Shown here: positions 14,018 to 33,924 of the stretch, one piece after another
Numbering within the stretch: the stretch's first letter is position 1
How the letters are laid out: every line of letters begins with the position of its first letter
Origin: Candidatus Saccharimonadota bacterium
GTDB taxonomy: Bacteria; Patescibacteriota; Saccharimonadia; Saccharimonadales; UBA10212
Assembly: GCA_019662065.1 (NCBI GenBank)
Contig: JAIFWC010000001.1
Coordinates: 1-52,770, forward strand
Length of the DNA: 52,770 nt
Direction of reading: 5' to 3'
Made by a program: the position numbers and the translations under genes
The notes under the pieces: generated by a model
Told to the model about the DNA's origin: nothing
The model's database searches: none
Seen by the model: only the letters and a program-made list of their open reading frames with translations

Positions 14018-14129
14018 GTAAGCAAGAAGTAGTGTACTTTGGTGCTTGCGCGTGGAGAACTTTAGCATCGCCGAACGTAGTGGGCTTCGCTTTAGCGACA
14101 ACTAATTTATTAAAGGAGTATTGCTTTTG

Positions 14130-17100
14130 ATGGCAAAAAATTCGGCTACCCTTGCGAACCGCACGTACTTTACAAATCAAGACGACGTTATTAACCCACC
14201 CAACCTGGTATCGCACCAGAACAATTCTTTCCAATGGTTCGTGGACGAAGGTTTGGGCGAATTACTGGCCGAGATCAGCCCGATCGATGATTATACCGGC
14301 ACCAAGCTGAGCATCAGCTTTAAGGATTATCATTTCGATAACCCTAAAATGAGCGAGTCTGAGTCGCGCGAGAACAATGTTAGCTTTGAAGCGCCTCTGA
14401 AGGCGACCGTGGAGCTGACTAATAAAGTTACGGGTGAAGTTAAGGACCAAGAGATTTATTTGGGTGATTACCCCTGGATGACTACACGGGGTACCTTTGT
14501 AATTAACGGGGCCGAGCGGGTGGTGGTTAGCCAATTGATCCGCTCATCCGGCGTTTTCTTCACCGCCGAGCCCCATGGTGCGACCAGTTTATATGGCGCC
14601 AAGATTATTCCTGTCCGCGGCGCCTGGTTAGAGTTTGAAACAGCGGCTAATGGCGCGCTATACGTTAAAATTGACCGCAAGCGTAAAATTGCCGTCACCA
14701 CCTTACTTAAGGCTCTCGGTTTAAATACCGAGCAGATTAAAGATGCCTTTAAGCACGTCGACCAATCAGACCAAATTAATTACGTAGACGCTACTTTGGA
14801 AAAAGACCCGTCAGGTAGTGGTAATGAGGCTTTGATTGAGGTTTACCGCCGCCTGCGCCCAGGTGACTTGGCGACGGTTGATAATGCCCGCAGCCTGCTG
14901 GAAAACATGTTTTACAACTTTAAGCGGTTTGATTTTGGCCGGGTCGGCCGCTACAAAATCAATAAGCGTCTGAACTTAGATGTGCCCAACACTATTGATA
15001 ACCGGGTTATGCGGATCGAAGATTTGCTGGCTGTGGTTGCTGAAATTATTCGTTTAAATATTACCCAGGATCCAGCCGATGAAATCGACAGTTTAGCTAA
15101 CCGGCGCGTGAAGTTGGTTGGTGAGCTAGTCCAGCGTCAGTTCCGAATTGGATTGCTACGTATGGAACGCAACGCCAAAGACCGGATGAGCATGAGTGAA
15201 ATCGAAACCGTCACACCAGCTCAGCTAATCAATGCCCGGCCGGTAGTGGCGGCAGTCCGGGAATTCTTTGCCAGCTCACAGTTATCCCAGTTCATGGACC
15301 AGATCAATCCGCTGTCTGAGCTGGCTCATAAGCGCCGCTTAAGCTCGATGGGACCTGGTGGTTTGAGCCGTGAACGGGCTGGTTTTGAGGTCCGTGACGC
15401 CCATGCCACCCACTACGGCCGGATTTGCCCGGTAGAAACGCCGGAAGGCGCTAACATTGGTCTGGTGCTTAATCTAGCCAGTTTTGCCCGAATTAATGAG
15501 TATGGTTTTATCGAAACCCCGTATCGTAAAGTTATCAATGCAGTAACCGCCAAAGAGGCCCCAGGCTATATCGCCCGTGTCGACTTGGAAGACGAAAAAG
15601 GTAAAGTGATTGTTAAGGCCGGTGCGGTAATTACTGATGCCGCGGCTAAGCGCTTGGCAGTCATTAAAAGTCAGGCTACCTGGCCAGTAAAAGCTCAAAT
15701 TACTGATAAGATCGTATATTTGGACGCTGCCGAAGAAGAAGCTGCTGTAATTGCCGGTGCTGGCAACGAAATCGATGCCAAAGGCTACTTTAAAGACAGC
15801 CGGGTTAGCGCCCGTTCCAGCCTAGAAGCTGGAGAAGTCGATGCCGATGACATTACCCACATGGACGCCGCCCAAAGCCAAACCATTGGCTCGAGCGCCG
15901 GCTTAGTGCCATTTGTTGAGAAAAACTATGTGCTGCGCTCGTTGATGGGTTCTAACCAGCAACGTCAAGCTGTACCGCTAATTAAGCCCGAGAGCCCGAT
16001 TGTCGGTACTGGTTTAGAGGCTACAGTAGCCCACAATACCGGCCAGTTAATTGTGGCCGAAGAAGACGGCGTAGTCCAAAAAGCTACCGCCGATGAAGTA
16101 ATTGTTAATTATAAAAAGGTAGGCAAGGTTACCTATCATCCGGTCCACTTTGCGCGTAGTAACGAAGGCAGTTCGATCAACCAGGTAGTAGTGGTCAGCA
16201 GTGGCGATAAGCTCAAAGCTGGCGATTCGCTTATTGAAGGCATGAGTATCGCTGATGGCGAACTGGCGCTTGGTAAAGATTTGCTGACAGCTTTTATGCC
16301 TTGGGCTGGCTACAACTTCGAAGATGCCATTATCTTATCGCGCAAGCTGGTAGAAGATGACACTCTGACTTCTATTCACATTGTTGACTACATGACTGAG
16401 GTCCGCGAAACCAAGTTAGGGCCTGAGATTGTCACCCGCGACATTCCAAATGTATCCGAAGAAGCCCTCCGCCACTTAGATGAAGACGGCATTGTCCGGA
16501 TTGGTGCCGAGGTCCATCCTGGTGACATCCTAGTCGGCAAAATTACGCCTAAAGGCGAGCAAGAACTATCTAGCGAAGAGCGCCTGTTGCGAGCTATCTT
16601 TGGCGAAAAAGCCAAAGAAGTCCGTGACACTTCACAGCGCATGAGCACCGGCCGCCACGGTAAAGTGGTAGGTGTTAAGGTCTTTAGTCGGGCCAACGGC
16701 CACGAGCTAAAGGCCGGCGTAATTATGCAAATTCAGGTATTTGTAGCCCAAATGCGCAAAATCAGTGTTGGCGATAAGCTTGGAGGCCGCCACGGTAATA
16801 AAGGCGTAATCGCCCGGATTTTGCCGGTCGAGGATATGCCATTCACCGAAGATGGCCGCCCAATCGACATCATTTTAAACCCACTTGGCGTGCCTAGCCG
16901 TATGAACATCGGCCAGTTATTTGAAACGCACCTAGGTATGGCCGCCCGGGCGCTGGGCATAAAAGTCGCCAGCCCGGCGTTTAACGGCGTGCCAATCGAT
17001 AAAATTCAAAGCTTGCTCAAAGACGCTAAATTGCCTGAAGACGGCAAACAGCAGCTGTTTGACGGCCGTAGCGGCGAAGCATTTTCTGAGCGCACCACAG

Positions 17101-17675
17101 TCGGCAGCATGTACATCATTAAGCTCAACCACATGGTGTCCGATAAAATCCACGCCCGTTCCACAGGACCTTACACCATGGTTACCCAGCAGCCACTCGG
17201 CGGTAAGGCCCAAAATGGCGGCCAGCGCTTTGGCGAAATGGAAGTCTGGGCCCTAGAAGCCTATGGCGCCGCCAGTACCCTGCAAGAAATGCTGACGATT
17301 AAGTCTGATGACGTGTACGGTCGCGCTAAAGCCTATGAATCGATCATCAAAGGTACAGCTATCCAGGGGCCAAAGGTACCCGAGAGCTTTAACGTTTTGG
17401 TTAAAGAGTTACAAGGGCTTGGTCTTAAAGTCGATCTATTAGCCGACAACCAAGTGGTTGATGCCGAACAGGTTTTGGCTCAAAACATCAAAGAAGAGGC
17501 CAAAAGCATACCCGAGACCGAAAACGAGCCCGCCGCTCCGAGCGCCGAAATTATCGAAGAGGCCGTGGCCGAAGACATGCTCAATATTACTGATGACGCC
17601 GGAGTATCCCTGACTGATCCAGAAAAAGAACTCCAAGATCTTGAAAACCAAACCATAGAAGAGGAGGCTTCTTAA
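14130..17675 (+). CDS. rpoB: DNA-directed RNA polymerase subunit beta
   Basis: The track ORF starts at TTG 14121. ATG 14130 (MAKNSATLANRTYF) follows AAAGGAG. It matches RpoB along its full length and has an acidic C-terminal tail. Confidence 0.97.
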   Translation: MAKNSATLANRTYFTNQDDVINPPNLVSHQNNSFQWFVDEGLGELLAEISPIDDYTGTKLSISFKDYHFDNPKMSESESRENNVSFEAPLKATVELTNKVTGEVKDQEIYLGDYPWMTTRGTFVINGAERVVVSQLIRSSGVFFTAEPHGATSLYGAKIIPVRGAWLEFETAANGALYVKIDRKRKIAVTTLLKALGLNTEQIKDAFKHVDQSDQINYVDATLEKDPSGSGNEALIEVYRRLRPGDLATVDNARSLLENMFYNFKRFDFGRVGRYKINKRLNLDVPNTIDNRVMRIEDLLAVVAEIIRLNITQDPADEIDSLANRRVKLVGELVQRQFRIGLLRMERNAKDRMSMSEIETVTPAQLINARPVVAAVREFFASSQLSQFMDQINPLSELAHKRRLSSMGPGGLSRERAGFEVRDAHATHYGRICPVETPEGANIGLVLNLASFARINEYGFIETPYRKVINAVTAKEAPGYIARVDLEDEKGKVIVKAGAVITDAAAKRLAVIKSQATWPVKAQITDKIVYLDAAEEEAAVIAGAGNEIDAKGYFKDSRVSARSSLEAGEVDADDITHMDAAQSQTIGSSAGLVPFVEKNYVLRSLMGSNQQRQAVPLIKPESPIVGTGLEATVAHNTGQLIVAEEDGVVQKATADEVIVNYKKVGKVTYHPVHFARSNEGSSINQVVVVSSGDKLKAGDSLIEGMSIADGELALGKDLLTAFMPWAGYNFEDAIILSRKLVEDDTLTSIHIVDYMTEVRETKLGPEIVTRDIPNVSEEALRHLDEDGIVRIGAEVHPGDILVGKITPKGEQELSSEERLLRAIFGEKAKEVRDTSQRMSTGRHGKVVGVKVFSRANGHELKAGVIMQIQVFVAQMRKISVGDKLGGRHGNKGVIARILPVEDMPFTEDGRPIDIILNPLGVPSRMNIGQLFETHLGMAARALGIKVASPAFNGVPIDKIQSLLKDAKLPEDGKQQLFDGRSGEAFSERTTVGSMYIIKLNHMVSDKIHARSTGPYTMVTQQPLGGKAQNGGQRFGEMEVWALEAYGAASTLQEMLTIKSDDVYGRAKAYESIIKGTAIQGPKVPESFNVLVKELQGLGLKVDLLADNQVVDAEQVLAQNIKEEAKSIPETENEPAAPSAEIIEEAVAEDMLNITDDAGVSLTDPEKELQDLENQTIEEEAS

Positions 17676-17677
17676 AG

Positions 17678-20600
17678 ATGCGCCAATATTCACCCAGCGG
17701 AACCAACATTGCCGACTTTGATGCCGTGCGCCTGGCGATTGCCAGCCCCGACGACATTTTGGAATGGAGCTACGGCGAAGTTACCAAACCGGAGACTATT
17801 AACTACCGCACTCAAAAGCCGGAGCGCGATGGCCTGTTTTGCGAACGGATTTTTGGACCGGTTAAGGACATTAACCCACATGACGCCAAATATAAAGGTG
17901 TCCGCTCGCGCGAAGCCGCAGTCGATAAAAATGGCGAGCTAGTTACCCGCAGTATTGTCCGCCGTGAGCGTATGGGCCACATTAGCTTAGCTGCGCCAGT
18001 AGCCCACATTTGGTTCTTACGCGGTACTCCAAGCGCTATGGGCTTATTACTCGGTATGACCGTCAAAAACCTGGAGCGGGTGGCTTATTTTGCCAGCTAT
18101 ATTATCAAGTCGGTCGATATAGCTAATCGCGACAAAATTAAAGCCGACCGCCAAGCTGAAAATTCGGCGGCCGAACAAGCCATTAATCTTCGATATGAAG
18201 ACGAAGCCAAGAAGGACGGTGCTGATATGCACACTTTGGCCGAAGCCCGTACCAAAGAACTAGAAGAACTAGCCCGCGAATTTGAGACTTTTAATACTCA
18301 GATTGATGGGCTCGAGAAATTCCGCTTACTATCCGAAACTGACTACCGTAACCTGCCAGAAGAATTGCGAGCCCTAATTAGTGTTGGCATGGGTGGCGCA
18401 GCTTTGAAAGCACTACTCGAAGAAGTTGATTTACTGAAACTGATCGATGATTTGAACAAGGAAGCTGAAGAAGCCAAAGGCCAGCGCAAGAAAAAAATCA
18501 TGAAGCGTCTGCGCCTGCTGGAGAGCATGGAACGGGCTGGTATTAAACCGAGCAGCCTGACAGTCAGTGTTCTGCCAGTGATTCCTCCAGATCTGCGCCC
18601 AATGGTCCAGTTAACTGGTGGCCGTTTTGCTACCTCTGATTTAAATGACTTGTACCGGCGGGTAATTAACCGCAACAACCGGCTCAAGAAACTTATGGAG
18701 CTAAATGCCCCGGAAGTGATCCGCCGCAACGAGCAGCGCATGCTGCAAGAAGCCGTTGATGCCTTGATTGATAATAATTCTACCCGCTCTGGGCGGGCCG
18801 TAGCGGCCACTGGCCAACGCCGCCGCCTAAAGAGCTTGTCTGACATGCTCAAAGGCAAGCAGGGCCGTTTCCGCCAGAACTTACTGGGTAAGCGCGTCGA
18901 CTACTCTGGCCGCTCGGTAATTGTGGCTGGTCCAGAACTTAAGATGTACCAATGCGGTCTGCCTAAAACCATGGCTCTGGAGCTATTCAAACCCTTTGTA
19001 ATTGGCCGTTTGATTGACCAAGAATTGGCCCACAATATCCGTAGCGCCACCCGTATGATCGAGGCTAACGAATCAGCCGTCTGGGACGCACTCGACGAAG
19101 TAATTAAGGGCAAATACGTCCTCTTGAATCGTGCCCCCAGTCTGCACCGCTTAAGTATCCAGGCTTTCCAGCCTGTACTCATCGAAGGTAAAGCTATTCA
19201 GCTGCATCCCTTGGTCTGCAAGGGCTTTAACGCCGACTTTGACGGCGACCAGATGGCCGTCCACCTACCACTATCAGATGCCGCCCAGGCCGAAGCCCGC
19301 GAAATCATGGCCGCTAACCGCAATTTGCTAAAACCGGCCGATGGTTCACCAATTTTGCACGTTGAGCAAGACATTGTTTTGGGTTGTTACTACCTAACTT
19401 ACGAGCGCCCTGGCGCTGAAAAAGCCAAGCCACGAGCCTTAAGTAGTATTGATGAAGTTGTCTTAGCATTAGATGAGCATGAGATCCAGCTGCAAACAGC
19501 CGTGGAGGTACCTTTCCGTGGCGAAATTCGCCAAACCACCGCCGGCCGCCTACTATTTAATGAGATTTTTCCCGAGGACTTCCCCTTCCAAAACGAAGCT
19601 ATGACCAATAAAAAGCTCGATTTTGTGATGACCTACACCTACCAAAAATATGGCCAAGAAACTACTGCCGAAATCGCCGATGACCTTAAAGACCTCGGCT
19701 TCCGCTACGCCACTGCCTCCGGAATTTCGATTGGTATGGATGACTTTTCTGACCTTAAAGTCCTCAAAGGCATCGTTGACGATGGTGAAAAAACCGCCAC
19801 TGAAGTTAGCCATCAGTACGCCTCTGGCTTCATTACTGACGAGGAACGCTACCGTTTGACCGTCGAGGCTTGGACCAGTGTTGACAGCAAGGTCGAAAAA
19901 GCCTTGGCTGAGCAGTTTGCTACTGAAGATAACACCATGTCAATTGCTGTGGCCTCTGGGGCTCGTGGTAACTTGAGCCAAATGAAGGACTCAGTCGGGA
20001 TGATTGGTATCCGAGCCGATGCTACTGGCCGGGCCATGGAGCTGCCGGTCCGTTCTAACTATAAATATGGCCTTAACCCGTTGGAGTACTTCACGGCTAC
20101 CCGTGGTACCCGCAAATCCCTTATCGATATCGCTCTACGTACCGCCGACTCCGGTTATCTTACCCGTCGTTTAGTCGATGTGGCCCAAGATGTCTTTACA
20201 GTTGAGCACGACGCCGAAGATCCTGGTTTTGCCATTTACCGGGCCGATTCAGAAGCCATCGGTATCCCGCTAGCCGGCCGCTTAGAAGGCCGCTACTCTG
20301 CTAAAACCATTAAGCGCTATGTCAAGGAAGGTGAGTTGATTAGCGCCGAAGCCGCCCAGGCCATCGAAGCTGATGAGTCTGTTGATTCAGTCTTAGTCAT
20401 GAGTGTTCTCTCTTGCACTAACGCCCGCGGTGTTAGCCAAAAGTCCTATGGCGTAGATCTAGCTACCGGCGAACTGGTTGCTAATGATTACCCGATTGGC
20501 GTAATCGCTGCCCAGTCAATTGGTGAGCCCGGCACTCAGCTATCCCTAGACTCTAAGCACCGGGCCGGAGCCGTTACCGCCGGCGATGACGTAACCCAGG

Positions 20601-21520
20601 GTCTAACCCGCGTGGAAGAGCTTTTGGAAGTCCGCACACCTAAAGGCCAGGCTTATCTAACCGATATTTCTGGCAAGGTTAATGCCTGGGAAGAGGGCGA
20701 CCACTATATTGTTCAGGTCACTGCTAAAAAGCAAAAACCGATTGAATTGTCTTTAAGCGGTCGCGTAGCCCAAGTTAAAGATGGTGACGAAGTCAACATC
20801 GGCGACGTAGTAGCTGCCCAAGAAGACCACAGCGAGCCGCTAGTGGCGCCAATGACTGGTAAGGCCAATGTCGAAAAGACAATGATCACCATTACACCAA
20901 CTGCCAAAACCATGATGCGTTACGAAATCCCCGGCTTTAAACAACTACAAATCACTGACGGTGATGAAGTCGTGGCTGGTCAGCGTCTAACCAATGGTTC
21001 AATTAATTTACATGATTTATTGCGCTTGCAGGGCGTCGAAGCCACCCAGCGCTACATCATGAATGAAATCCTGTACATCTTTGCTAGCCAAGGCCAGACG
21101 ATTGCTGACAAGCACCTTGAGGTAATTGTCCGCCAGATGTTTAGCCGAGTCCAGATTGAAGATGCCGGTGATAGCGAGTTCATTACCGGAGACGTAGTTA
21201 GTAAGTTGGCCGTCGAAGAGGCTAATACCCAACTGTCGGCCAAGAAAAAGAACGTCGTTAAGTACAACCAGTTGTTGCTGGGTATCACTAAGGCTTCGTT
21301 GTCCACCGACTCATTCCTGTCTGCGGCTTCTTTCCAAGACACTACTCGAGTGCTAATTGCGGCTGCTACCAGCGGTAAAGTCGACCACCTATATGGCCTT
21401 AAAGAAAATGTGATTTTGGGTCGCCGAATCCCAGTCGGTACTGGCGCTAAACCACTAGCGGACGAGAACGAGGGCGCCGAAACCCTAAACCCGTTGGAAA
21501 CGGTTGCTTCAAAGGAGTAA
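17678..21520 (+). CDS. rpoC: DNA-directed RNA polymerase subunit beta'
   Basis: 1280 aa with the catalytic NADFDGDQM motif, starting 2 nt after the rpoB stop. Confidence 0.97.
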   Translation: MRQYSPSGTNIADFDAVRLAIASPDDILEWSYGEVTKPETINYRTQKPERDGLFCERIFGPVKDINPHDAKYKGVRSREAAVDKNGELVTRSIVRRERMGHISLAAPVAHIWFLRGTPSAMGLLLGMTVKNLERVAYFASYIIKSVDIANRDKIKADRQAENSAAEQAINLRYEDEAKKDGADMHTLAEARTKELEELAREFETFNTQIDGLEKFRLLSETDYRNLPEELRALISVGMGGAALKALLEEVDLLKLIDDLNKEAEEAKGQRKKKIMKRLRLLESMERAGIKPSSLTVSVLPVIPPDLRPMVQLTGGRFATSDLNDLYRRVINRNNRLKKLMELNAPEVIRRNEQRMLQEAVDALIDNNSTRSGRAVAATGQRRRLKSLSDMLKGKQGRFRQNLLGKRVDYSGRSVIVAGPELKMYQCGLPKTMALELFKPFVIGRLIDQELAHNIRSATRMIEANESAVWDALDEVIKGKYVLLNRAPSLHRLSIQAFQPVLIEGKAIQLHPLVCKGFNADFDGDQMAVHLPLSDAAQAEAREIMAANRNLLKPADGSPILHVEQDIVLGCYYLTYERPGAEKAKPRALSSIDEVVLALDEHEIQLQTAVEVPFRGEIRQTTAGRLLFNEIFPEDFPFQNEAMTNKKLDFVMTYTYQKYGQETTAEIADDLKDLGFRYATASGISIGMDDFSDLKVLKGIVDDGEKTATEVSHQYASGFITDEERYRLTVEAWTSVDSKVEKALAEQFATEDNTMSIAVASGARGNLSQMKDSVGMIGIRADATGRAMELPVRSNYKYGLNPLEYFTATRGTRKSLIDIALRTADSGYLTRRLVDVAQDVFTVEHDAEDPGFAIYRADSEAIGIPLAGRLEGRYSAKTIKRYVKEGELISAEAAQAIEADESVDSVLVMSVLSCTNARGVSQKSYGVDLATGELVANDYPIGVIAAQSIGEPGTQLSLDSKHRAGAVTAGDDVTQGLTRVEELLEVRTPKGQAYLTDISGKVNAWEEGDHYIVQVTAKKQKPIELSLSGRVAQVKDGDEVNIGDVVAAQEDHSEPLVAPMTGKANVEKTMITITPTAKTMMRYEIPGFKQLQITDGDEVVAGQRLTNGSINLHDLLRLQGVEATQRYIMNEILYIFASQGQTIADKHLEVIVRQMFSRVQIEDAGDSEFITGDVVSKLAVEEANTQLSAKKKNVVKYNQLLLGITKASLSTDSFLSAASFQDTTRVLIAAATSGKVDHLYGLKENVILGRRIPVGTGAKPLADENEGAETLNPLETVASKE

Positions 21521-21563
21521 ATTTGCTAAAGTTAACATTTGTATTTGGGAATAAGTAAGATAT

Positions 21564-21974
21564 ATGCCAACCATTAACCAATTGGTTAGAAAACCACGCA
21601 AAAGCTCCAGTGAAAAGAGTAAATCACCGGCGCTGCTTCGGGTTACCAATAATTTAAAGACCCGCAGCTACGAAAAAGAGTCACCATTTAAGCGCGGCGT
21701 TTGCGTGCGGGTAACAACTAAGACTCCCAAGAAGCCCAATTCGGCACTGCGTAAAGTGGCTCGTGTTCGCCTGACTAATGGCCATGAAGTCTGGGCTTAC
21801 ATCGGTGGCGAGGGACACAACCTGCAGGAGCACGCCGTAGTACTAGTGCGTGGCGGCCGGGTTAAAGATTTACCCGGCGTCCGCTACCACATTGTCCGCG
21901 GTTCGCTCGACTTACAAGGCGTCCAAAACCGCAAGCAGGGCCGCTCAAAATACGGCGCCAAGAGGCCCAAGTAA
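21564..21974 (+). CDS. rpsL: 30S ribosomal protein S12
   Basis: [12 protein letters not shown]... and [13 protein letters not shown] are present. Confidence 0.97.
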
Positions 21975-22453
21975 TGCCACGTAAGACTACCAAAGCCCTG
22001 ATAAGAGAAGTTGAACCAGACCGCCTATATAGCAGCACACATGTGTCAAAACTGATAAACCGGGTAATGCAAGATGGCAAAAAGCAACTAGCTGAGCGGC
22101 TGGTTTATAACGGCATGCAAAAAGCCGCCGATAAGCTCAAGGTCCAAAATCCGTTGGAAGTTTTTGAGCAGGCCATGAAAAATGTCCAACCACACCTAGA
22201 GACTCGCTCCCGCCGGGTTGGTGGCGCTAACTACCAAATCCCATTTGAAGTCAAAGGCCAGCGCCAACAGCACTTAACTACCATGTGGTTTGTCGAAGCT
22301 GCCCGGGCCCGCAGTGGCATGAGCATGGAAGACCGGATTGCCCAAGAACTAGCCGATGCTTATAACAGCACCGGTAGCGCAGTAAAGAAAAAAGAAGACA
22401 CCCACCGGATGGCCGAAGCCAACCGGGCCTTCGCCCACTTCGCCAGGAGCTAG
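21974..22453 (+). CDS. rpsG: 30S ribosomal protein S7
   Basis: [16 protein letters not shown]..., ANRAFAHF at the C-terminus, and a TAATG overlap with rpsL. Confidence 0.97.
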   Translation: MPRKTTKALIREVEPDRLYSSTHVSKLINRVMQDGKKQLAERLVYNGMQKAADKLKVQNPLEVFEQAMKNVQPHLETRSRRVGGANYQIPFEVKGQRQQHLTTMWFVEAARARSGMSMEDRIAQELADAYNSTGSAVKKKEDTHRMAEANRAFAHFARS

Positions 22454-22765
22454 ATGAGTGCGGAGCGAACAGCGGTTGACTATATGGTTAAGGTTGAGCT
22501 ATGCGAAGATTGCCCTTTGCGGGAGATGCACGCTAATGAGCCGGACTATATTAGGCTAAGCGGAACCACAGAAGACATGCAAAGAGAACTTTATATGCTG
22601 TCTGAAGGCCATGAGGAACTATTCTTGGTTGATGGTGTTCGGAGGCCAGAAGACATAATTGAGGCTTTTAACAGTTGCGATCAGCCTCACCAGCGTGATT
22701 CAATATTTCAGGCTTTTAAAGTGGTCTGCGGGGCGGTTAATTCATTAAAATTTGAGAGAAGCTAA
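22454..22765 (+). CDS. orphan acidic 103-aa protein inserted between rpsG and fusA
   Basis: The ATG abuts the rpsG TAG with 0 nt between them, and AGGAG lies 4 nt upstream. Possible metal ligands are C17,C20,H26 and C75,H79. I recognise no family. Confidence 0.6.
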   Translation: MSAERTAVDYMVKVELCEDCPLREMHANEPDYIRLSGTTEDMQRELYMLSEGHEELFLVDGVRRPEDIIEAFNSCDQPHQRDSIFQAFKVVCGAVNSLKFERS

Positions 22766-23071
22766 ATGGCGCACCGAAAATTTCCAAAACCTGTCTATGA
22801 GATGCTAGTTGATGAAAGATTCTCTAACATGGTTACTTTTGGAGCGAATGAGCATCAAAGTCGTGAAGAAGAGGTGATTGACTTCATCCGAGAGAGATTC
22901 ACCGGAATACCGGACTATAGCCTAAGGCTAGTGCGCCCTAAAGAGTATGGTAAAAAGAGACTGACTGGAATCAGGGCGCTTGCGGATACAGCACTGGATG
23001 AAGTCGTACAAAGGGTAGATATATCTGGAAAACTAGAGTTACTCAAATCAATCGATAGAACAACAGGATAG
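22766..23071 (+). CDS. orphan 101-aa protein inserted between rpsG and fusA
   Basis: The ATG abuts the upstream TAA with 0 nt between them, and the stop lies 2 nt before the fusA ATG. I recognise no family. AGR Arg and GGA Gly codons dominate. Confidence 0.6.
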
Positions 23072-23073
23072 TA

Positions 23074-25161
23074 ATGGCAGAGAAGAAGTACGAATTAAAA
23101 AAATTCAGAAATATTGGCATCATTGCCCATATTGATGCAGGCAAGACTACTACTACGGAGGGTATTCTTTACCGTACCGGTTTAAAGCATAAAATCGGGG
23201 CCGTACATGAAGGTGAAACTACCACTGATTGGATGGCCCAGGAGAAAGAGCGGGGCATTACTATTACGGCCGCGGCTGTAACCTGTTTTTGGAAAGACCA
23301 CAAAATTAATATCATCGACACTCCCGGCCACATCGACTTCACAGTGGAGGTGGAGAGGTCACTGCGTGTATTAGATGGTGCTGTAGTGGTCTTCGACGGC
23401 AAAATGGGCGTCGAAAGCCAGTCGGAGACAGTTTGGCGCCAGGCCGACAAATATGGCGTGCCACGCATTTGTTTTATCAACAAGATCAACCAAACCGGCG
23501 GCGATTTTTATAAGAGTTTGGAGAGTATCCACCATCGCTTATCCAAGAGAGCATTTCCCATCCATTTACCAATTGGCTTTGAGCAGTCGGTTTCTGGCGT
23601 GGTAGACCTAATTAGTATGAAGGCCTACACCTACAAAGACTTCACTGATAAGAATCTGGTAGAGGGCGAAATCCCGGCTGATATGGCCGACCAGGTCAAA
23701 AAATACCGTAGTTTATTGATCGAGAATGCCGTCGCTGAAGACGAACAAATGCTCGAGAAATATTTTGAAGTCGGCGAAGAGGGTCTGTCTGAAGATGATA
23801 TCAAAAAAGCCATCCGCACTGCTGTTTTGAGCGGTAAATTCTTTATTGTTAGTGGCGGCGATGGCCGTGGCGTAATCGTTGAAAAGTTACTTGATTCGGT
23901 TGTCGAGTTTTTACCAAATCCATTGGACCGCAGCAGCACCTGGGGCGTAAATCCTAAAAATGGCGAAGAAGTCGAGCGTAAGCCTAGTCCCAATGATCCG
24001 TTTGCAGCCTTAGCCTTTAAAATCTCAACAGACCCGTTTGTGGGTAAACTAGCCTTCTTCAGGGTCTATTCAGGTAAAGTTACAGCCGGAAGCTATATCC
24101 TTAACAGTTCTACCGGCGAGAAAGAGCGGGTCGGCCGGATTGTGCGCTTACATGCCGACAAACGTGAGGACGTAACAGAAGTAGAAGCCGGCGATATCGC
24201 CGCAATTGTTGGCCTCAAGGGGACCACAACTGGTAATACGCTGTGCGATGCCAATAACCCAATTATTCTAGAGAGCATTACCTTCCCGGAACCACCAGTC
24301 AGCATTGCCATTGAGCCCAAGACCAAAGCCGACCAAGAAAAAATGAGTACGGCCCTACAGCGGCTGGCCGAAGAGGATCCAACCTTTAGGATTAAAGTCG
24401 ACCACGAAACCGGCCAAACAATCATTTCCGGTATGGGCGAGCTGCACCTGGAAATCATTGTTGACCGGATGAAGCGTGAATTTACGGTCGAAGCCAACAT
24501 CGGCCAGCCGCAAGTGGCCTATCGTGAAACTATCCGTCGTGACGGCGTTGAGCAAGAAGGTAAATTTATCCGCCAGTCCGGCGGCCGCGGCCAGTATGGC
24601 CACGTTTGGTTGCGTCTGTCCCAGAATGAATCTGGCAAAGGACTAGAATTCATCAACAGCATTAAAGGCGGCACAGTACCCAGCGAATACATACCTGCTG
24701 TCCGTTCCGGCATCGAAGAAGCCATGGCTAACGGCGTAATCGCCGGCTACCCCGTGGTAGATATTAAGGCCGAACTTTATGACGGCAGTTTTCACGACGT
24801 TGACTCTTCGGAAATGGCTTTCAAAATTGCCGGTTCAATGGCTTTCCAAGCAGGCGTCAAAAATGCCGCCCCGGTCCTACTTGAGCCAATTATGAAAGTT
24901 GTAGTGGTTACACCCGAGAGCTTCATGGGTGATGTCATTGGTGATCTTAACTCCAAGCGCGGGCGTGTCGAATCAATGGAAGACCTTAGTCCCGGCATCA
25001 AAGAAGTTACTGCCTTTGTGCCTTTGGGCGAAATGTTCGGTTATACCACCAATCTGCGTAGCGCAACTCAGGGTCGGGCCAGCTCCAGCATGGAACTCGA
25101 CCACTATGCCGATGTACCGCCTAACGTTGCTCAAAACATCATTGCCAAATCCAGCAAATAA
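23074..25161 (+). CDS. fusA: elongation factor G
   Basis: 695 aa with [20 protein letters not shown] and NKID (NKxD-type G4 motif). Confidence 0.97.
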
Positions 25162-25235: not shown

Positions 25236-26798
25236 ATGGTAAGAAAAAAAATTTCAAAATTGCCGATCGTCCATCCGATTGTAAATAAATACATACGGAA
25301 GACCCCGCTTCAGGCACTCCGCTCAGTTGTTTCTAAAGATGGGATGGGCGTATATGCCAGCTCCGATACATTGTTTCGAGGCGCGGTTTTTGGCCGCGAT
25401 TCATTAGAAGTAGCTGAGGATTTAATCCTACTTAGACCCAGGCTGGTCAAAACGATATTGATAACAATGGCTTCACTGCAAGGCGAAGAATTTAGAGAGG
25501 ACAATGAGGAAGAGCCCGGTAAAATCCTTCACGAATATAGGCGGGCCGTAGTTGACCGCCGGCGACTCAAAGATACCAGCAAACACATCTTCGATACCTT
25601 ATCCGAACTATGGGGTGGTGATGAGAAAAGCGTCGTCTATTATGGCTCTTTAGATGCCACGCCACTCTTTATAAGGGTCTTGTGCCGTTATTGCGATTAT
25701 TATGGTCCGGAGATTCTAAAACGGCGAATTGTTTTACGTAGCGGACATCAAGTAAGCATGGGCATCGTTCTAGAAAATGCCCTAAGCTTCTTGCTCGGAG
25801 AGCTGAAAAGATCCAAGAGCGGCTTGCTTGAATACCGTCGGCTTGGTCCTCATGGACTTTTAATCCAAGCCTGGAAGGATTCTAAAGAATTTTATGTACA
25901 TAATAACGGCGAGCTAGCCAACCATAACCAACCGATTTCATCGATTGAAGTCCAGGCAATTGGTTATGATGCTTTAAAGCTGGCTTCTAAATACATACCG
26001 TCAAAACACAATATATGCGTAAGCGAAGCTACAAAGCTTAGGGATAAAACTATCGAATTATTGTGGCTTCCAAAAGCTAGCTTTTTTGCACTTGGCACAG
26101 ACTTCGATAGCCAGAACCGCTTAAGGATAATTGACATAGAAACCGCCAATCCCGCAGGACTTCTAGATAGCATGTTTTTTGATGATCTACCGCCCGAAGA
26201 TAGGCAAAAATATATAAGCGGAATAGCCCGTAATATAATGGGAACCCATTTTCTAACAGATGCGGGGATTCGCAGCAAGGGCTTGAGCGAGGCGTCTTTA
26301 ATTCCATTTTGGGACTATCACGGCTCCTTCACTACTTGGCCGAAAGAGACATATGATATTGCCAAGGGACTCAGGCGGCAAGGGTTTCCTAAGTTGGCCA
26401 CCGAATTAGAAAACCGTTTGCTAAACGCCATTAATGCCATCCGTAACTATTCGGAATTTGTGTATGTTGATTTTAGAGGTAGAGTGCTGGGCGCGGCTTC
26501 AGCGGCCCACCACCATGCTGAATTAGTTTTAGTGAACAGTGTTGACCGACCCGAAAAAATCCAAGCCTGGACAGTATCGGCTGTGGTTGCGATCTTAGCC
26601 AACCGCAAATACAAAAAACTGGTGCCTAGAATTAAAAAAAGAAACGACGCTAGTCCAGGCTGGCAGGACGAGATAGAAAGGGAGGTACTGGTCCATATAC
26701 CAGTAATGCCTTGGCTTAGGTCAAAACGGACCCTTTCGGCGCGTTATCCATCATACCCCTATGAAGTAAAAGGAAAAAAAGATAAAATTATAAATTGA
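25236..26798 (+). CDS. amylo-alpha-1,6-glucosidase / glycogen-debranching-enzyme-like (alpha/alpha)6 glycoside hydrolase
   Basis: 520 aa with GDE_C-type motifs FGRDS, PGKILHEY, YYGSLDATPLFI, QAWKDS, IEVQA and TDAGIRS. It uses a TGA stop. Confidence 0.75.
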   Translation: MVRKKISKLPIVHPIVNKYIRKTPLQALRSVVSKDGMGVYASSDTLFRGAVFGRDSLEVAEDLILLRPRLVKTILITMASLQGEEFREDNEEEPGKILHEYRRAVVDRRRLKDTSKHIFDTLSELWGGDEKSVVYYGSLDATPLFIRVLCRYCDYYGPEILKRRIVLRSGHQVSMGIVLENALSFLLGELKRSKSGLLEYRRLGPHGLLIQAWKDSKEFYVHNNGELANHNQPISSIEVQAIGYDALKLASKYIPSKHNICVSEATKLRDKTIELLWLPKASFFALGTDFDSQNRLRIIDIETANPAGLLDSMFFDDLPPEDRQKYISGIARNIMGTHFLTDAGIRSKGLSEASLIPFWDYHGSFTTWPKETYDIAKGLRRQGFPKLATELENRLLNAINAIRNYSEFVYVDFRGRVLGAASAAHHHAELVLVNSVDRPEKIQAWTVSAVVAILANRKYKKLVPRIKKRNDASPGWQDEIEREVLVHIPVMPWLRSKRTLSARYPSYPYEVKGKKDKIIN

Positions 26799-26834
26799 CC
26801 GGTTGGGAGGCCGAATTTTTAACGGAGTTTAATA

Positions 26835-27896
26835 GTGAAAATTGCTATTGTAGCTAGCCCGTTCGCTTCTGTTCCCCCCATTAAATACGGCGGCTCTGAG
26901 CGCGTAATTTATTACCTAATAAAAGGGCTGATCGAAAAGGGCCACGAGCCAATTCTTCTGGGGACGGGTGATTCGGACGTAGATTGTGATCTTATCCCGA
27001 TTGTTCGTAGGGCGATTTTCTTTCCCTCGGATTTAAAAAACATCGCCCTTTTTAATCGCCGGGTCAGGTTGATAGAAAAGCGCACCGAGCGAAAATTAAA
27101 AATGCTCTTGCCGGAAATTGATGTTATCCATTCCCATAAATTCGATTTAAAAGGCTTTGGTAGCTTTCCTAGCCTAACAACCCTTCATGACCCTTTTGTC
27201 CTGGACAGGCCAAAATATATCAATAACTTTCCATTGACATATTATAAAGAGCGAAAAAAACTCAACTATGTGGCGATTTCTCATAGCCAGCAAGCTTCCT
27301 ACCCGGATTTAAATTATGCAGGTGTTGTGTATAACGGCGAAGATCCTTCAGAATTTCCGATTGTCCTAAAGCCAAATAACTATGTCTGTTTTGTTGGCCG
27401 CTTCGACCGGGAAAAAAACCCTCACCTAGCTATCCAACTGGCTGTCAGTCAGGGTATACACATAAAGCTAGTCGGCAAATCAGACTATGGCAGCCGGAGT
27501 TATTTTAACGAGGAAATAAAACCTTATCTTGACCATCCGTTGGTAGAATTTCTCGGCGAGCTAGATAGAAGCGAAACAATAAAAGTACTAAGTAAAGCCA
27601 AATGTAACCTTCACCCCACCGGCTACCGCGAACCTTTCGGCCTAACTGTTATGGAAGCTGGGTATTGCGGGACGCCGACCTTAGCTATTGCTAAGGGGTC
27701 AATGTCGGAGCTGATCGAAGACAACAAGACCGGGATATTGGTTGAGGATTTTGTGCAAGGCTATCACGTCCTAAAAAAATGCTTTAGCTTGGACCGAGAA
27801 TACATAGCCACTAAAACTCGAAAAAGATTCAACTACCACAAGATGACACAAGACTATATCCATGCTTACCGCCGAGTTATAAAAACTTCTAAATAA
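26835..27896 (+). CDS. GT4-family glycosyltransferase
   Basis: 353 aa with a GTG start 8 nt after GGAG. The N-terminus is MKIAIVASPF...YGGSERV and the EX7E region is REPFGLTVMEAGYCGTP. Confidence 0.85.
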   Translation: MKIAIVASPFASVPPIKYGGSERVIYYLIKGLIEKGHEPILLGTGDSDVDCDLIPIVRRAIFFPSDLKNIALFNRRVRLIEKRTERKLKMLLPEIDVIHSHKFDLKGFGSFPSLTTLHDPFVLDRPKYINNFPLTYYKERKKLNYVAISHSQQASYPDLNYAGVVYNGEDPSEFPIVLKPNNYVCFVGRFDREKNPHLAIQLAVSQGIHIKLVGKSDYGSRSYFNEEIKPYLDHPLVEFLGELDRSETIKVLSKAKCNLHPTGYREPFGLTVMEAGYCGTPTLAIAKGSMSELIEDNKTGILVEDFVQGYHVLKKCFSLDREYIATKTRKRFNYHKMTQDYIHAYRRVIKTSK

Positions 27897-27900
27897 CCAA

Positions 27901-29478
27901 ATGGAAAAATTTATATCAGCCGAATCGGCTGGGAAAGCGCTCCAGGACTGCCGATTTTCTGGCGGTATAGCCGCCAGCACAATAGATGGGGAATTTGGAG
28001 GTGCTCGAATCACTCGTGACTACTTGGCAGTGATGTCTGATCTGATGGAATCCCAACCTGGACTCGTCAGAGAAGGATTTAGTCAAATCCCGAAGGAACA
28101 AGGGATTGAATTTGATTCGGCTACAGACCAACAACTTAATCGTCTGCCACATCAAGTTGCCTATAATATGTGGGACGGTCGCCGGGTTCCATGCTATGTA
28201 TCAGAAAATCGTAGAGAGTGGGCTAAGAAATGGGGAATTCCATTTGATGAACAAAACGGTTTTATAGTATGGAACCAAACCGACGCCAGCCAATATGTAC
28301 ACGAACTAAGACGATTTGTGGATTTGTATGGCACATCTGTCTTGAACGATAAATTTATACATAAACCAACTCAAGAAATTCGAACCGTTAAAGAAGCCGC
28401 GTTGCGTCAGCTAGATTGGATGGTCAGTGCAATCGAAGATTCCAACCTCGGGCTTTTAGAGGTCCAAGAATTCAATTCGCGCCAAACTAGTTGGAGTGGA
28501 GTAATGCGCGATGGATATGATGCTTATTTCCATCCTAAAGGCGAATACGGATATGCCGTTAACAAAGATAAACCAATCGCTTATTTCGAGAATCAAGCCT
28601 GGGCAACTCAGGCCTTCTTGGATGCTATCTATCTTTTTAAGCATGATGAGAGGTCTGAGATTTCCGGCAGGAGGTCAAAATGGCAAGATATAAGTCATGA
28701 TTTGCCGCAAAGAGCCTTTGACCTGTTTAGAATCGATAAAGAAGATTACTTCGCGGCGGCTATTGATCGTGGTGAAAATGGTCAACCACAAAAAGTAGAC
28801 CAAATCAGTGTCGATATAGCTAAAACACTCGCAGCCCCAGAGTTTTACCACAACTTAACTGACAAAACTGTTAACCCTGATGATGTACTAGCGGGCATCG
28901 TCCGTAAAATATTTAGCCCTGCATTCATGACGCCTGCCGGTCTACGCATGCTTGATCTTAGACATAGCTCTCAAGAGGGCGATTACTTTGCTTATCAAGC
29001 CTCAAAAGCTGTCTGGCCGTATATTCAATTTAAGCTTTCTAATGCCCTAAGGGGAATCCACTTGCCTGAATTAGCCCTCGAAATAGAGCTCAATAGAGCC
29101 ATACCAGCCATAGAGAATGCTAATTCATTCACGGAACTTGGCTGGGTCACGCCCGAGGGGATAGTATTGTATCAGCCGGCTCCAGATATTACTGAAAGTG
29201 CTATTGAGATAGCCGCAGAACAGTGGCCATCTCGTAATCAGGCCTGGACAATTTCAGGAGTCAGCGCAGCTCTAAGTGCAGCCAAAAAAAGATTTAAAAA
29301 ATCAGAGAGCTGGCATCGAAATGTAACTGATGAGGCTTTAGCCGGAATTAAAGACATTAAAAACATCAGCCAGCTGACAAGCGAAGAATTCCTGCCCTAC
29401 CGGATTGATTTCGAAGCTGGCCGTCGACTCGGAAGACAGCGAGCAATCGCTATGGGTGGAATAACTCTCTCCGAATAA
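27901..29478 (+). CDS. divergent GDE-like (alpha/alpha)6 glycoside hydrolase, paralog of 25236..26798
   Basis: 525 aa, collinear with the first copy: ITRDY/FGRDS, MRDGYDA/WKDS, FENQAWA/IEVQA, TPAGLRMLD/TDAGIRSKG and NQAWTISGV/IQAWTVSAV. Confidence 0.6.
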   Translation: MEKFISAESAGKALQDCRFSGGIAASTIDGEFGGARITRDYLAVMSDLMESQPGLVREGFSQIPKEQGIEFDSATDQQLNRLPHQVAYNMWDGRRVPCYVSENRREWAKKWGIPFDEQNGFIVWNQTDASQYVHELRRFVDLYGTSVLNDKFIHKPTQEIRTVKEAALRQLDWMVSAIEDSNLGLLEVQEFNSRQTSWSGVMRDGYDAYFHPKGEYGYAVNKDKPIAYFENQAWATQAFLDAIYLFKHDERSEISGRRSKWQDISHDLPQRAFDLFRIDKEDYFAAAIDRGENGQPQKVDQISVDIAKTLAAPEFYHNLTDKTVNPDDVLAGIVRKIFSPAFMTPAGLRMLDLRHSSQEGDYFAYQASKAVWPYIQFKLSNALRGIHLPELALEIELNRAIPAIENANSFTELGWVTPEGIVLYQPAPDITESAIEIAAEQWPSRNQAWTISGVSAALSAAKKRFKKSESWHRNVTDEALAGIKDIKNISQLTSEEFLPYRIDFEAGRRLGRQRAIAMGGITLSE

Positions 29479-29590
29479 TTCATTTATCGCTTGCTAATTC
29501 AACAATTTATTTTAGAATAATGGTATTAGTGAGTTCAATGAAAATTCGATAGCCTGCCTATTTGACGGACAGGGCATTTTTGCACCCGGC

Positions 29591-30445
29591 ATGGGTGAGT
29601 TAGCACACAGAAGGCATGCGGCTGCAAGAGAAGTATTTAAGGACTCGAGCGAGCGATTAGGAATCGATCTAAGGAAGGTTTGCTTTGAAAGAGGTGAATT
29701 GAACTATCTCCAGGGTGAATCCCGCATCATACAACCATCCATAGTAGCTGTTGATTTGGCAGAATATGCCGCTTGGAGAGATATAAATGGTGAAGCGGAT
29801 GTTGTCACTGGCCTTAGCTTAGGCATGTTTGCAGCTATGGCTGCCGCTGGGGTGTTTGAATCCTATGATGATGCAGTGGAGGCGGCAGCTCGGAGAGCAA
29901 AAATAATGCACGCTACAGCCACAAGGACGGAAGGTAAGATGGCAGGAGCTGTTGGCATGGTAATGGATAAGCTAGAGCCGATTGTTCATAAGGCAGGTGC
30001 AGAGTTCGCTGTTATAAGAGATAGGGTAAGAAATAGTTTTGTAATTACCGGCACGGCTGAAGAAGTTGGACGGGTTGAAGAAGAAGCTAAAAAAGAAGGC
30101 CTACCTAGATGGGAATACCTTAATATTTCTGGAATGTTTCATTCAAAGCATCAAAAAGATTCAGTCAAACCATATGACAACGAGCTAAATGATTTTGAAC
30201 TGCATGACCCCTTGCTCCATTTACTAGGAAATAATGCCATGTATCTAGTGTCTGCGGAATCAGCCAGGCAGCACCTGCTTGACCAAATAGAGCAAACATC
30301 TGATTGGGATAAGGTAACCGAGCGACTCGCATTAGATGGCATAACTAAAGTCGTTGAGCTTGGCCCCGATAAAAAACGCGGCCTTGCCAGGCAGATGGTC
30401 AAAAACCATAAGGCGTCCGAAATTGAATTTCCATTCGCCGCTTAA
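29591..30445 (+). CDS. FabD-like acyltransferase-domain protein (malonyl-CoA:ACP transacylase family); 5' end apparently disrupted
   Basis: GLSLGMF (GxSxG nucleophile elbow) and ISGMFHSKH (FabD His region) are present. The conserved N-terminal IACLFDGQGIFAPGMG is encoded in frame upstream of ATG 29591 but has no in-frame start. Confidence 0.65.
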   Translation: MGELAHRRHAAAREVFKDSSERLGIDLRKVCFERGELNYLQGESRIIQPSIVAVDLAEYAAWRDINGEADVVTGLSLGMFAAMAAAGVFESYDDAVEAAARRAKIMHATATRTEGKMAGAVGMVMDKLEPIVHKAGAEFAVIRDRVRNSFVITGTAEEVGRVEEEAKKEGLPRWEYLNISGMFHSKHQKDSVKPYDNELNDFELHDPLLHLLGNNAMYLVSAESARQHLLDQIEQTSDWDKVTERLALDGITKVVELGPDKKRGLARQMVKNHKASEIEFPFAA

Positions 30446-31773: not shown

Positions 31774-31873
31774 CTGCGCTCCGCACTCACCGTATGTATA
31801 ATACGGCTCACTTACGGTGCTCGATTGTAAAGCCAAACTGCACTCAAATGGAAAAAGCCTTTCCGGGGATGGT

Positions 31874-32113
31874 ATGACCCAGGAACACTATCAACCTAAG
31901 CTCGAAGGTTTTGATGAGGCGTATACTATCCAGGCTGGCGACATTATGGCACAAAACGAATACTTGCATATAATTAAAGTGGTAGAAACCGCACAGGCCG
32001 AAAATAGCGAGAAGCGAAGAGAAGCTGAGCGGCTCAGAGCCATTGAAAATGCAAGGAAACGAAAGCTAACAGGCCGCAAAATATCCCATCTATTAAGACC
32101 GTTAGGAGCTTAA
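31874..32113 (+). CDS. orphan 79-aa protein immediately upstream of rpsJ
   Basis: The track ORF starts at GTG 31817. ATG 31874 (MTQEHYQPKLEG...) follows GGGGA. The C-terminal half is a basic coil (EKRREAERLRAIENARKRKLTGRK). Its TAA abuts the rpsJ ATG with 0 nt between them. Confidence 0.5.
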   Translation: MTQEHYQPKLEGFDEAYTIQAGDIMAQNEYLHIIKVVETAQAENSEKRREAERLRAIENARKRKLTGRKISHLLRPLGA

Positions 32114-32584: not shown

Positions 32585-33310
32585 TCACTGATAGGTTTTA
32601 ACGAAATTGCGTAGGATTTTAACTGGCTCTATCACTGCCTGTTGGGCCGCTTCTTTGACTAATTTGCCGGCATCTTCTGGCGGGAAATAACCGTAGTTTT
32701 TATAAATCTGGATCCGCAGTGCCAAGCCAATATTATCTAGCTCGGGGTGGAACTGGCAGGCGTAAATATTGTTTTTGATGCGTAATAGCTGGGTCGGGCA
32801 GGTGCTCGAATATGCTAGTACTACCGAATTGGCGGGTAGTTTGTCGCACGATTCTTTATGCCCCGAAAATGCTACGAATCCATCCGGTAAATCTTTAAGC
32901 AGCTTGTCTTGCTTACCTTCTTGGCTCAGCTCGATCTTATAACCACCAATTACTTCTGGGTACTGGCGTGAGATCACACCACCTTGATGTTCAATTACAA
33001 CTCCAATATAGCAAGCTGCTAACAGTGGGAAGTCCTGCCCAGCAACTTCATCCATGATTTTGTTTATTGCGGCCTCGCACTTTTTCTGCTCAGTCGATTT
33101 TTTGGTTGGCAAATCGCTAACACAATATGGTCCACCACCGATAAAAATGCCAGAATAATTGGACAAATTCAGCTTAGGTAATTGCCCGCTATGGATCCTA
33201 ACTTGTCTTAATTGCTCCGGATTTAAGTCGCCAAATTTCATAAAAGCTTCGTATTCGTTATCAGCGGCTTTATCTTCTGGCCGGGAAAAAAAAAAAAAAA
33301 ACGGCTTCAT
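32585..33310 (-). CDS. class I glutamine amidotransferase-like protein
   Basis: 241 aa with a nucleophile-Cys region [16 protein letters not shown] and the His/Glu region ACQFHPE. It uses a TGA stop. Codons 4-9 lie in a T16 run. Confidence 0.8.
33286..33301. repeat. A16/T16 homopolymer inside the 5' end of the GATase CDS
   Basis: I counted 16 consecutive A on the + strand at 33286-33301. This encodes FFFFF(S) in [14 protein letters not shown]. Confidence 0.95.
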
Positions 33311-33375
33311 GCATTAATTTTAGCCGATTTTTAACAAGAGTTTCTGAGTTTCAGCAAGCTTGATAGGATGGCGTA

Positions 33376-33408: not shown

Positions 33409-33417
33409 ATGGACCGC

Positions 33418-33914: not shown

Positions 33915-33924
33915 ATTGTAGTGG

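Follow-up and report, generated by a model that had tools for sequence, protein, structure and literature searches.

Predicted small-protein genes occupy a variable slot between rpsG and fusA in the str operon of soil Saccharimonadales

The gene string rpsL-rpsG-fusA, encoding ribosomal proteins S12 and S7 and elongation factor EF-G, is a paradigm of gene-order conservation. In Escherichia coli, translation of fusA is coupled to that of rpsG, and S7 autoregulates the operon. Lineage-specific accessory genes and orphan open reading frames (ORFs) inside ribosomal-protein operons are already known, as are variable loci at fixed sites. In Bacillus subtilis, ybxF (rplGB, L7Ae-like) lies between rpoC and rpsL in the str cluster; the PF05635 family has a scattered, insertion-like distribution; and FusB and FusC are EF-G-binding protection proteins with a four-cysteine zinc-finger domain, FusB being a two-domain protein of about 213 amino acids (aa). 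Here we analyse a stretch of 52,770 nucleotides (nt) from a Candidatus Saccharimonadota bacterium (assembly GCA_019662065.1, contig JAIFWC010000001.1; hereafter the window), in which two abutting ORFs of about 100 codons, ORF1 and ORF2, stand between rpsG and fusA. This junction proves to be a variable slot across the surrounding clade, with ORF2 representing a conserved family and ORF1 a class of putative four-cysteine proteins. The position, the degree of rpsG-fusA turnover and the two protein types appear to be new; in the literature on rpsG/fusA insertions in Saccharibacteria or the Candidate Phyla Radiation (CPR) we found no description of the slot, the ORF2 family or the four-cysteine class.

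Several described systems resemble this locus in part. Like ybxF, the slot genes are small, lineage-restricted, dispensable, apparently promoterless and probably co-transcribed with rpsL-rpsG-fusA; however, ybxF encodes a ribosome-binding protein of known fold, is conserved across Firmicutes and sits 5' of rpsL, whereas the slot lies between rpsG and fusA and its content differs between sister genomes. PF05635 genes are likewise small ORFs inside very highly expressed translation-apparatus loci, and one member sits in the same slot in a relative of the window (locus L007), but ORF1 and ORF2 do not match the hidden Markov model (HMM) of that family; ORF1 is predicted to have a mixed beta/alpha fold, and the ORF2 family has a motif of its own. 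Type II toxin-antitoxin modules share the format of two abutting genes of about 100 aa with an acidic upstream product, yet the slot partners often occur alone, are not co-inherited, lack toxin or antitoxin domains and have no autoregulated promoter. Integron cassettes, too, are small promoterless ORFs with diverse, mostly ORFan content, swapped at a fixed site behind an upstream promoter, but the slot lacks an integrase and attC-like inverted repeats, and its junctions measure zero nt. The likeness to FusB and FusC is one of logic only, namely a four-cysteine, presumably zinc-binding protein linked to EF-G, here through gene adjacency. No Pfam family matches ORF1 or 13 other four-cysteine ORFs of the slot. 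The comparison is a lead and not a membership.

The features of the insert and its flanks are as follows.

21974..22453, plus strand: rpsG, ribosomal protein S7, 159 aa, 69-89% identical to S7 of clade relatives
22445..22449, plus strand: Shine-Dalgarno (SD) sequence AGGAG for ORF1, within the terminal Arg-Ser codons of rpsG and 4 nt ahead of the ORF1 start codon
22454..22765, plus strand: ORF1, 103 aa by translation, the best of six frames
22754..22761, plus strand: purine-rich GAGAGAAG run, a possible weak SD-like element within the 3' end of ORF1, preceding the ORF2 start
22766..23071, plus strand: ORF2, 101 aa, member of an unnamed family according to a full HMMER scan
22778..22951, plus strand: conserved core of the ORF2 family (residues 5-62) in the family alignment
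23065..23068, plus strand: SD sequence AGGA for fusA, within the last ORF2 codons, 5 nt before the fusA ATG
23074..25161, plus strand: fusA, EF-G, 695 aa, 83-92% identical to full-length EF-G of clade relatives

Together ORF1 and ORF2 fill the rpsG-fusA gap, with junctions of 0, 0 and 2 nt, and the boundaries in the original prediction (TAG/ATG at 22451-22456, TAA/ATG at 22763-22768 and TAG-ta-ATG at 23069-23076) were reproduced exactly. An ORF scan across 22454-23071 found no competing ORF of at least 50 aa in the other frames or on the other strand, and we estimate the chance that a random 103-codon frame of the same composition stays open at about 0.002. For both ORFs the annotated frame scored top of six under a codon model trained on the other genes of the window. 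Judged by their sequence, ORF1 and ORF2 are genuine genes inserted seamlessly in the str operon. Scans for promoters and terminators, repeats and Rfam elements found nothing above background in the insert, and the SD sequences lie inside the upstream genes; co-transcription and translational coupling of both ORFs with the S7 and EF-G genes, as had been proposed, are thus likely.

The compositional claims made earlier for the two proteins also stood. ORF1 is acidic (21 D+E against 11 K+R, isoelectric point (pI) 4.6) and contains C17, C20, H26, C75 and H79 as described, together with a further cysteine, C92, while ORF2 is of mixed charge (17 D+E, 18 K+R, pI 8.0) and has no cysteine. Codon usage does depart from that of the ribosomal-protein neighbours: AGA and AGG account for 4 of 8 Arg codons in ORF1 and 7 of 11 in ORF2 (11 of 19 overall), GGA for 6 of 10 Gly and ATA for 4 of 10 Ile codons, and G+C content at third codon positions (GC3) is 0.45 in ORF1 and 0.38 in ORF2 against 0.52-0.58 in rpsL, rpsG and fusA. 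Over the insert, overall GC falls to 0.42-0.46 and GC skew becomes positive. The later acquisition that had been read from this departure is a different matter: the non-ribosomal genes elsewhere in the window (25236-30445, 31817-32113 and 32585-33310) share this codon style, which therefore marks genes outside the highly expressed core, leaving a foreign origin unproven.

EF-G and S7 assign the window to Saccharibacteria (Saccharimonadales, CPR); an exact-sequence look-up of S7 found nothing. For 160 related loci we mapped rpsG and fusA and determined the length of the gap separating them. The records closest to the window in EF-G and S7 are soil and rhizosphere metagenome-assembled genomes (MAGs) and contigs, and we delimited the clade at S7 identity of at least 68% and EF-G identity of at least 79%, which gave 42 loci with both genes. 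Outside this clade the gap is mostly below 110 nt, in keeping with the expectation that fusA directly follows rpsG; within it, that expectation fails for about three quarters of the genomes, the gap measuring 247-992 nt in 31 of 42 loci and at most 141 nt in the remaining 11. Every one of the 31 long gaps holds one or two ORFs of 75-168 aa on the same (plus) strand. These begin no more than 4 nt after the rpsG stop in 20 of 30 cases and usually end within about 25 nt of the fusA start. An SD-like motif (AGGA, GGAG or GAGG) is present in the last 15 nt of rpsG in 18 of 27 occupied slots versus 2 of 12 empty ones (Fisher p = 0.006), and this covariation with occupancy points indirectly to translation of the slot ORFs.

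The pooled slot ORFs also carry a clear coding signature. G and T at the first codon position make up 0.375 and 0.152, GC at positions 1, 2 and 3 is 0.58, 0.42 and 0.39, and at positions 1 and 2 the values are practically identical to those of S7 and EF-G. Each subclass (four-cysteine, ORF2 family, other occupants and the ORFs found between rpsL and rpsG) has this signature, with first-position G of 0.36-0.38, first-position T of 0.12-0.17 and median pI of 4.5-5.9, hence mostly acidic, over the sets. By comparison, 174 spurious ORFs taken from the wrong frames of fusA gave 0.26, 0.25 and a median pI of 10.3. This sequence signature shows the slot occupants to be real coding sequences whose predicted products are mostly acidic.

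The original prediction had proposed a survey of this junction across relatives for presence and conservation; occupancy of the slot recurs in the 31 loci, but its content is unrelated even in sister genomes. All-against-all BLASTP and phmmer comparisons of the slot ORFs detected almost no similarity among them, the exceptions being ORF2 with the L083 gene and a weak match of L029 with L090. The sister genomes L002 and L003 have S7 proteins that are 96% and EF-G proteins that are 93% identical, and their slots contain a single gene of 75 aa in one and genes of 90 aa and 116 aa in the other, with no DNA or protein similarity. Alignable sequence ends precisely with the rpsG stop codon and begins again at the ribosome-binding site of fusA. 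Unrelated content between such sharp boundaries indicates that the slot content was replaced and did not merely diverge. In a neighbour-joining tree of S7 plus EF-G, ORF2-family, four-cysteine and other occupant types are interleaved within the window's own subclade. The slot of L007 (5591-5956) encodes a PF05635 23S-rRNA-intervening-sequence protein, a bAvd-like four-helix bundle (E 5.6e-35). Taken together, these comparisons of sequence and gene order show the rpsG-fusA junction to be a clade-wide variable slot whose occupants turn over by replacement. The sister pair rules out the divergence of a single ancestral gene beyond recognition as the sole explanation, and diversification by a diversity-generating retroelement (DGR) was rejected in view of variation that takes the form of whole-gene replacement and not of A-targeted mutation.

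Among these occupants, ORF2 is the most conserved resident as judged from sequence. A full HMMER (phmmer) scan of 1.84 billion representative proteins returned nine small homologues of 81-137 aa with E values from 3.5e-16 to 2.5e-4, and a tenth match, to a 1209-aa protein, was discarded as spurious. A word-prefiltered search of 5.8 billion proteins recovered only ORF2 itself, the prefilter having overlooked these true relatives. The earlier remark that neither ORF belongs to a recognisable family thus stands as far as named families go, but ORF2 has at least nine homologues in an unnamed one. All nine proteins, on 13 contigs from NCBI, JGI, ENA and Logan, are encoded between rpsG and fusA on the same strand; the genes lie directly upstream of fusA, and several overlap its start by 8 or 20 nt. 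A family HMM run against the other slot ORFs matched those of L083 and L093 only, which are further, more divergent members. The source records annotate the family members as hypothetical proteins. In one of them (L165) the gene is called with a spurious 30-aa N-terminal extension.

Conservation in the family is concentrated in an N-terminal core of about 60 aa with the motif PKPVYEL-DERF-Y-VTF-SRE-DF-RFTG-PEY-LRMLRP-EY, in which P9, Y11, D16, F25, R33 and F45 (numbered as in the window protein) are invariant in the alignment, and the C-terminal tail is free to vary. Family members in relatives share 35-51% identity with ORF2, against 84-89% for S7 and 84-96% for EF-G. The ratio of nonsynonymous to synonymous substitution rates (dN/dS) in the core is 0.12-0.39 in nine of ten computable pairs and 0.70 in the tenth, with dN of 0.3-1.0 and dS saturated. 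The gene thus evolves fast, yet under purifying selection. ORF2 had no match in Pfam, NCBIfam, PHROGs or PADLOC, the other family members had none in Pfam, a viral scan found no relatives in viral contigs, and the family profile gave chance-level matches only against PDB sequences. On this sequence evidence ORF2 represents a conserved, unnamed family of related Saccharibacteria that occurs solely in the position directly before fusA and is held by purifying selection.

The two-gene layout of the window recurs as well. In L170, the closest full-length relative (EF-G 92% identical), rpsG is followed, across a TAG/ATG junction identical to that of the window, by an 80-aa four-cysteine ORF, an ORF2-family gene and fusA. 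Upstream of the ORF2-family gene there are a 45-aa two-cysteine ORF and an 89-aa four-cysteine ORF in L169, a 46-aa two-cysteine ORF in L171-173 and an uncalled 111-aa acidic ORF in L165/166. Except for the 45-aa and 46-aa pair, these upstream partners are mutually unrelated. The arrangement of a variable cysteine-containing ORF followed by an ORF2-family gene is thereby shown, at the level of sequence, to recur in at least four lineages, including the closest full-length relative. Each element also occurs without the other, the ORF2 family lacking an upstream partner in L161, L162, L163/164, L168, L083 and L093 and four-cysteine ORFs standing without an ORF2-family gene in at least 12 loci. 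In the public contigs of L165 (3718-4053) and L170 (2775-3017) the ORF upstream in the slot had been overlooked by gene callers.

ORF1 is linked to the other occupants by its cysteines. Among 37 ORFs of the rpsG-fusA slot, 16 have no cysteine and six have one, none has two or three, 11 have four and four have five, a bimodal distribution that a common binomial would produce with P = 8.7e-10. In the 15 proteins with four or five cysteines, a C-x2-7-C pair lies near the N terminus, often with proline after it as in CEDCP of ORF1, and a second pair comes 30-75 residues further on. We defined the four-cysteine class as proteins of 75-150 aa encoded in the rpsG-fusA slot with exactly four or five cysteines, an N-terminal C-x2-7-C pair and a later pair; ORF1 falls within it through C17-x2-C20 plus C75 and C92. 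The pattern is largely specific to this slot, where it is the commonest type and usually acidic, and it suggests a putative four-ligand metal site. A Pfam scan of 14 four-cysteine slot ORFs, ORF1 included, returned no match. Beyond the cysteines there are no significant pairwise matches, the best being EDCPLREMH of ORF1 with ENCPWVEQH of L169 at E of about 0.04-0.09, so that we speak of a class and not of a proven family.

ORF1 itself was found on this contig only, by exact-sequence look-up and by searches; it had no match in Pfam, NCBIfam, PHROGs or PADLOC, no homologue in the metagenome and viral scans, and only chance-level matches among PDB sequences. An AlphaFold2 model made without an alignment is mixed beta/alpha (mean predicted local distance difference test (pLDDT) 61, predicted template modelling score (pTM) 0.54), and its best Foldseek hit in the PDB has a meaningless E of 1.4; the single-sequence model of ORF2 is poor (pLDDT 43). 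Homology to known housekeeping families, which would have spoken against an insertion of novel genes, was found for neither protein in Pfam or NCBIfam. An HNH-type endonuclease was considered and dropped, there being no HNH signal in Pfam.

We propose, with a probability of about 0.6, that ORF1 and ORF2 are genuine, translated, non-essential genes for small cytoplasmic proteins in a lineage-specific variable slot of a soil Saccharimonadales clade, with a role accessory to translation. Lacking a promoter of their own, they would be expressed from the str-operon transcript and translated by coupling, through SD sequences that form part of the final codons of the preceding gene, and the inserts would keep the S7-to-EF-G coupling chain intact. 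If that chain must persist, only seamless, ORF-filled inserts would survive. The four cysteines of ORF1 may bind metal, probably zinc. The strict adjacency to fusA favours products that are accessory and dispensable and that bind or modulate EF-G or the 30S subunit, a suggestion that comes from synteny. A place among the ribosomal proteins themselves does not fit pI values of 4.6 and 8.0, a slot empty in 11 of 42 loci and a family at 35-51% identity where S7 is at 84-89%. The slot genes would either evolve quickly or be swapped between related lineages, and replacement between sister genomes implies that some exchange mechanism exists; with essential genes on both sides, the simplest candidate would be homologous recombination in the conserved flanks, rpsG and fusA.

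Several observations weigh against this proposal. About a quarter of the clade genomes have an empty slot, and slot content can be replaced; both points speak against a core role in translation. Neither protein has a family, fold or solved-structure match, and both structural models are poor (pLDDT 61 and 43). In the word-prefiltered search of 5.8 billion proteins ORF1 matched only itself, and the same prefilter also missed the relatives of ORF2, so its orphan status is provisional. Within the four-cysteine class the pair spacings vary (2-7 and 3-16 residues) and the L170 member is basic; the group may be convergent and not a family. A more specific version of the proposal, which we regard as speculative and improbable, makes the slot a dedicated fast-turnover, arms-race locus in which the ORF2 family and interchangeable four-cysteine zinc proteins bind EF-G or the ribosome. 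Wired into the str operon and following a FusB-like logic with unrelated sequence, they would shield or adjust the translation machinery of an epibiotic Saccharibacterium in the face of translation-targeting antibiotics or toxins from its actinobacterial hosts and neighbours. Equally speculative is the idea of the slot as a nursery, in which genes for new proteins would emerge or be tried out with high expression assured.

The alternative that deserves most attention, though we consider it doubtful, is that the slot ORFs, ORF1 above all, are benign translated filler without a function of their own. DNA at this position would persist only as an open, tightly joined frame, since open frames prevent polarity and keep fusA coupled to rpsG, and an abundant product would be favoured if soluble, acidic and harmless. 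The uniformly tight junctions, the occupants unrelated even in sister genomes, the 11 of 42 empty slots, the GC3 and codon adaptation below those of the neighbours, the singleton status of ORF1 and the comparable small ORFs at the rpsL-rpsG, fusA-tuf and tuf-rpsJ junctions all agree with it. What it does not account for is the conserved 60-aa core of ORF2 with its invariant residues and dN/dS below 1, which speaks against filler for ORF2; nor does it explain four or five cysteines in 15 of 37 slot ORFs with none at two or three, a sign of structural constraint, or a pooled coding signature that matches S7 and EF-G in strength at the first two codon positions. It is also rather improbable that the genes are horizontally acquired, selfish or hitch-hiking promoterless cassettes, whose source would be a phage, a plasmid or another Saccharibacterium and which would take advantage of the strong str promoter, a version of which the original prediction had entertained as a selfish two-gene cassette. 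GC, GC3 and AGR codons atypical of the flanking genes, the replacement of occupants between sister genomes and the PF05635 protein in the L007 slot would suit such an origin, but homology with relatives ends exactly at the rpsG stop and the fusA SD sequence, and the flanks carry no direct or inverted repeats or attC-like sites, only short chance-level repeats being present in 22200-23300. Furthermore, neither the neighbourhood of the insert nor the genes called in relatives include an integrase, transposase or homing endonuclease; viral contigs and PHROGs contain no relatives of ORF1 or ORF2; the ORF2 family is confined to one slot in one clade; and ordinary accessory genes in the window show an equal codon bias.

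The toxin-antitoxin format put forward earlier, with ORF1 as an acidic type II antitoxin upstream and ORF2 as the toxin downstream, did not hold up and is now very improbable. Two abutting genes of about 100 aa with pI 4.6 followed by 8.0 do look the part, and a small ORF paired with an ORF2-family gene recurs in several lineages; we nevertheless reject this reading, since both partners are frequently found singly (ORF2-family genes in at least six lineages, namely L161, L162, L163/164, L168, L083 and L093, and four-cysteine ORFs in at least 12 loci). The upstream partners are moreover mutually unrelated, searches of PADLOC, Pfam and NCBIfam with E up to 10 gave no toxin or antitoxin match, and the pair has no promoter or operator palindrome of its own. 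Least credible of all is an artefact, be it an assembly chimera or spurious ORFs in a non-coding spacer. ORF1 is seen on this contig only and GC falls across the insert, but like architecture is present in independent NCBI, JGI, ENA and Logan assemblies, including L170 with its TAG/ATG junction, four-cysteine ORF and ORF2-family gene. The reading frames are continuous, SD motifs are embedded in the upstream genes, and the annotated frame is the best of six, with no competing ORF on either strand.

Inside rpsL-rpsG-fusA, an entire clade of ultra-small bacteria with reduced genomes thus accommodates additional protein genes and goes on renewing them; through coupling these genes would be expressed at ribosomal-protein levels. 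The locus yields a small-protein family (ORF2) with a precise genomic address beside EF-G, about 15 four-cysteine mini-proteins at the same address, and a natural system for how new or foreign genes fit into an essential, translationally coupled operon. If the slot proteins bind the ribosome or EF-G, lineage-specific translation accessories would be described here for the first time in Saccharibacteria; should they be filler, selection for coupling would be able to maintain long open reading frames.

Upstream of the slot, the window contains the following features.

14121-17675, plus strand: rpoB, from the ORF list
17678-21520, plus strand: rpoC, from the ORF list
21532..21561, plus strand: promoter-like TTAACA-18-TAAGAT 5' of rpsL, matching 9 of 12 consensus positions in a scan, a candidate str-operon promoter
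21564..21974, plus strand: rpsL, ribosomal protein S12, 136 aa by translation, 84-95% identical to S12 of relatives

Promoter-like sites are no more numerous in this region than in shuffled sequence, which makes the site at 21532..21561 weak evidence. The rpsL homologues of relatives match PF00164. EF-G proteins 61-82% identical to that of the window occur in MAGs labelled Bordetella, Gammaproteobacteria and Nitrospirae (L011, L041 and L044), of which at least L011, at 82% and so within the clade range, is probably binning contamination of a public MAG.

The neighbouring rpsL-rpsG, fusA-tuf and tuf-rpsJ junctions are also variable in the clade, often with small ORFs. Between fusA and tuf the window carries four non-ribosomal genes (25236-30445, plus strand), encoding a 520-aa protein with a weak MGH1-like glycoside hydrolase match in relatives, a GT4 glycosyltransferase, a 525-aa protein without assigned function and an acyltransferase-domain protein. 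The first two are kept after fusA in L163 and L165/166, and in other relatives 106-711 nt separate fusA from tuf, an interval that often contains a small ORF. The tuf-rpsJ gap ranges from 41 to 1662 nt in the clade, with ORFs of about 100 aa in some relatives; in the window it holds a 98-aa ORF with a GTG start (31817-32113, plus strand), which abuts the S10 gene rpsJ (32114) at a 0-nt junction, has a codon style like that of ORF1 and ORF2, and lacks both a Pfam match and a relative among the fetched loci. The S10 operon of this genome is also broken, between rpsJ and rplC, by a class-I glutamine amidotransferase gene (32585-33310, minus strand). This is followed by about 790 nt of poorly coding sequence (33311-34098) with overlapping ORFs of 92 aa (plus strand) and 98 aa (minus strand), the latter with a hydrophobic C-terminus.

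The rpsL-rpsG region is in E. coli the site of operon autoregulation by S7. In the window the two genes overlap by 1 nt (ATGA), versus a junction of 75-269 nt in 20 of 46 clade loci. Inserts of this kind are found in L002, L003, L007, L009, L081, L082, L092, L100, L107 and L116, and in L163 (392-592), L168 (91-300), L169 (1917-2111), L170 (2126-2305) and L172 (2181-2366). An acidic ORF of 50-70 aa is present in 13 of the 20 occupied junctions, and the rpsL-rpsG ORFs of L163 and L169 are homologous, with 37% identity over 54 aa (E 6e-7).

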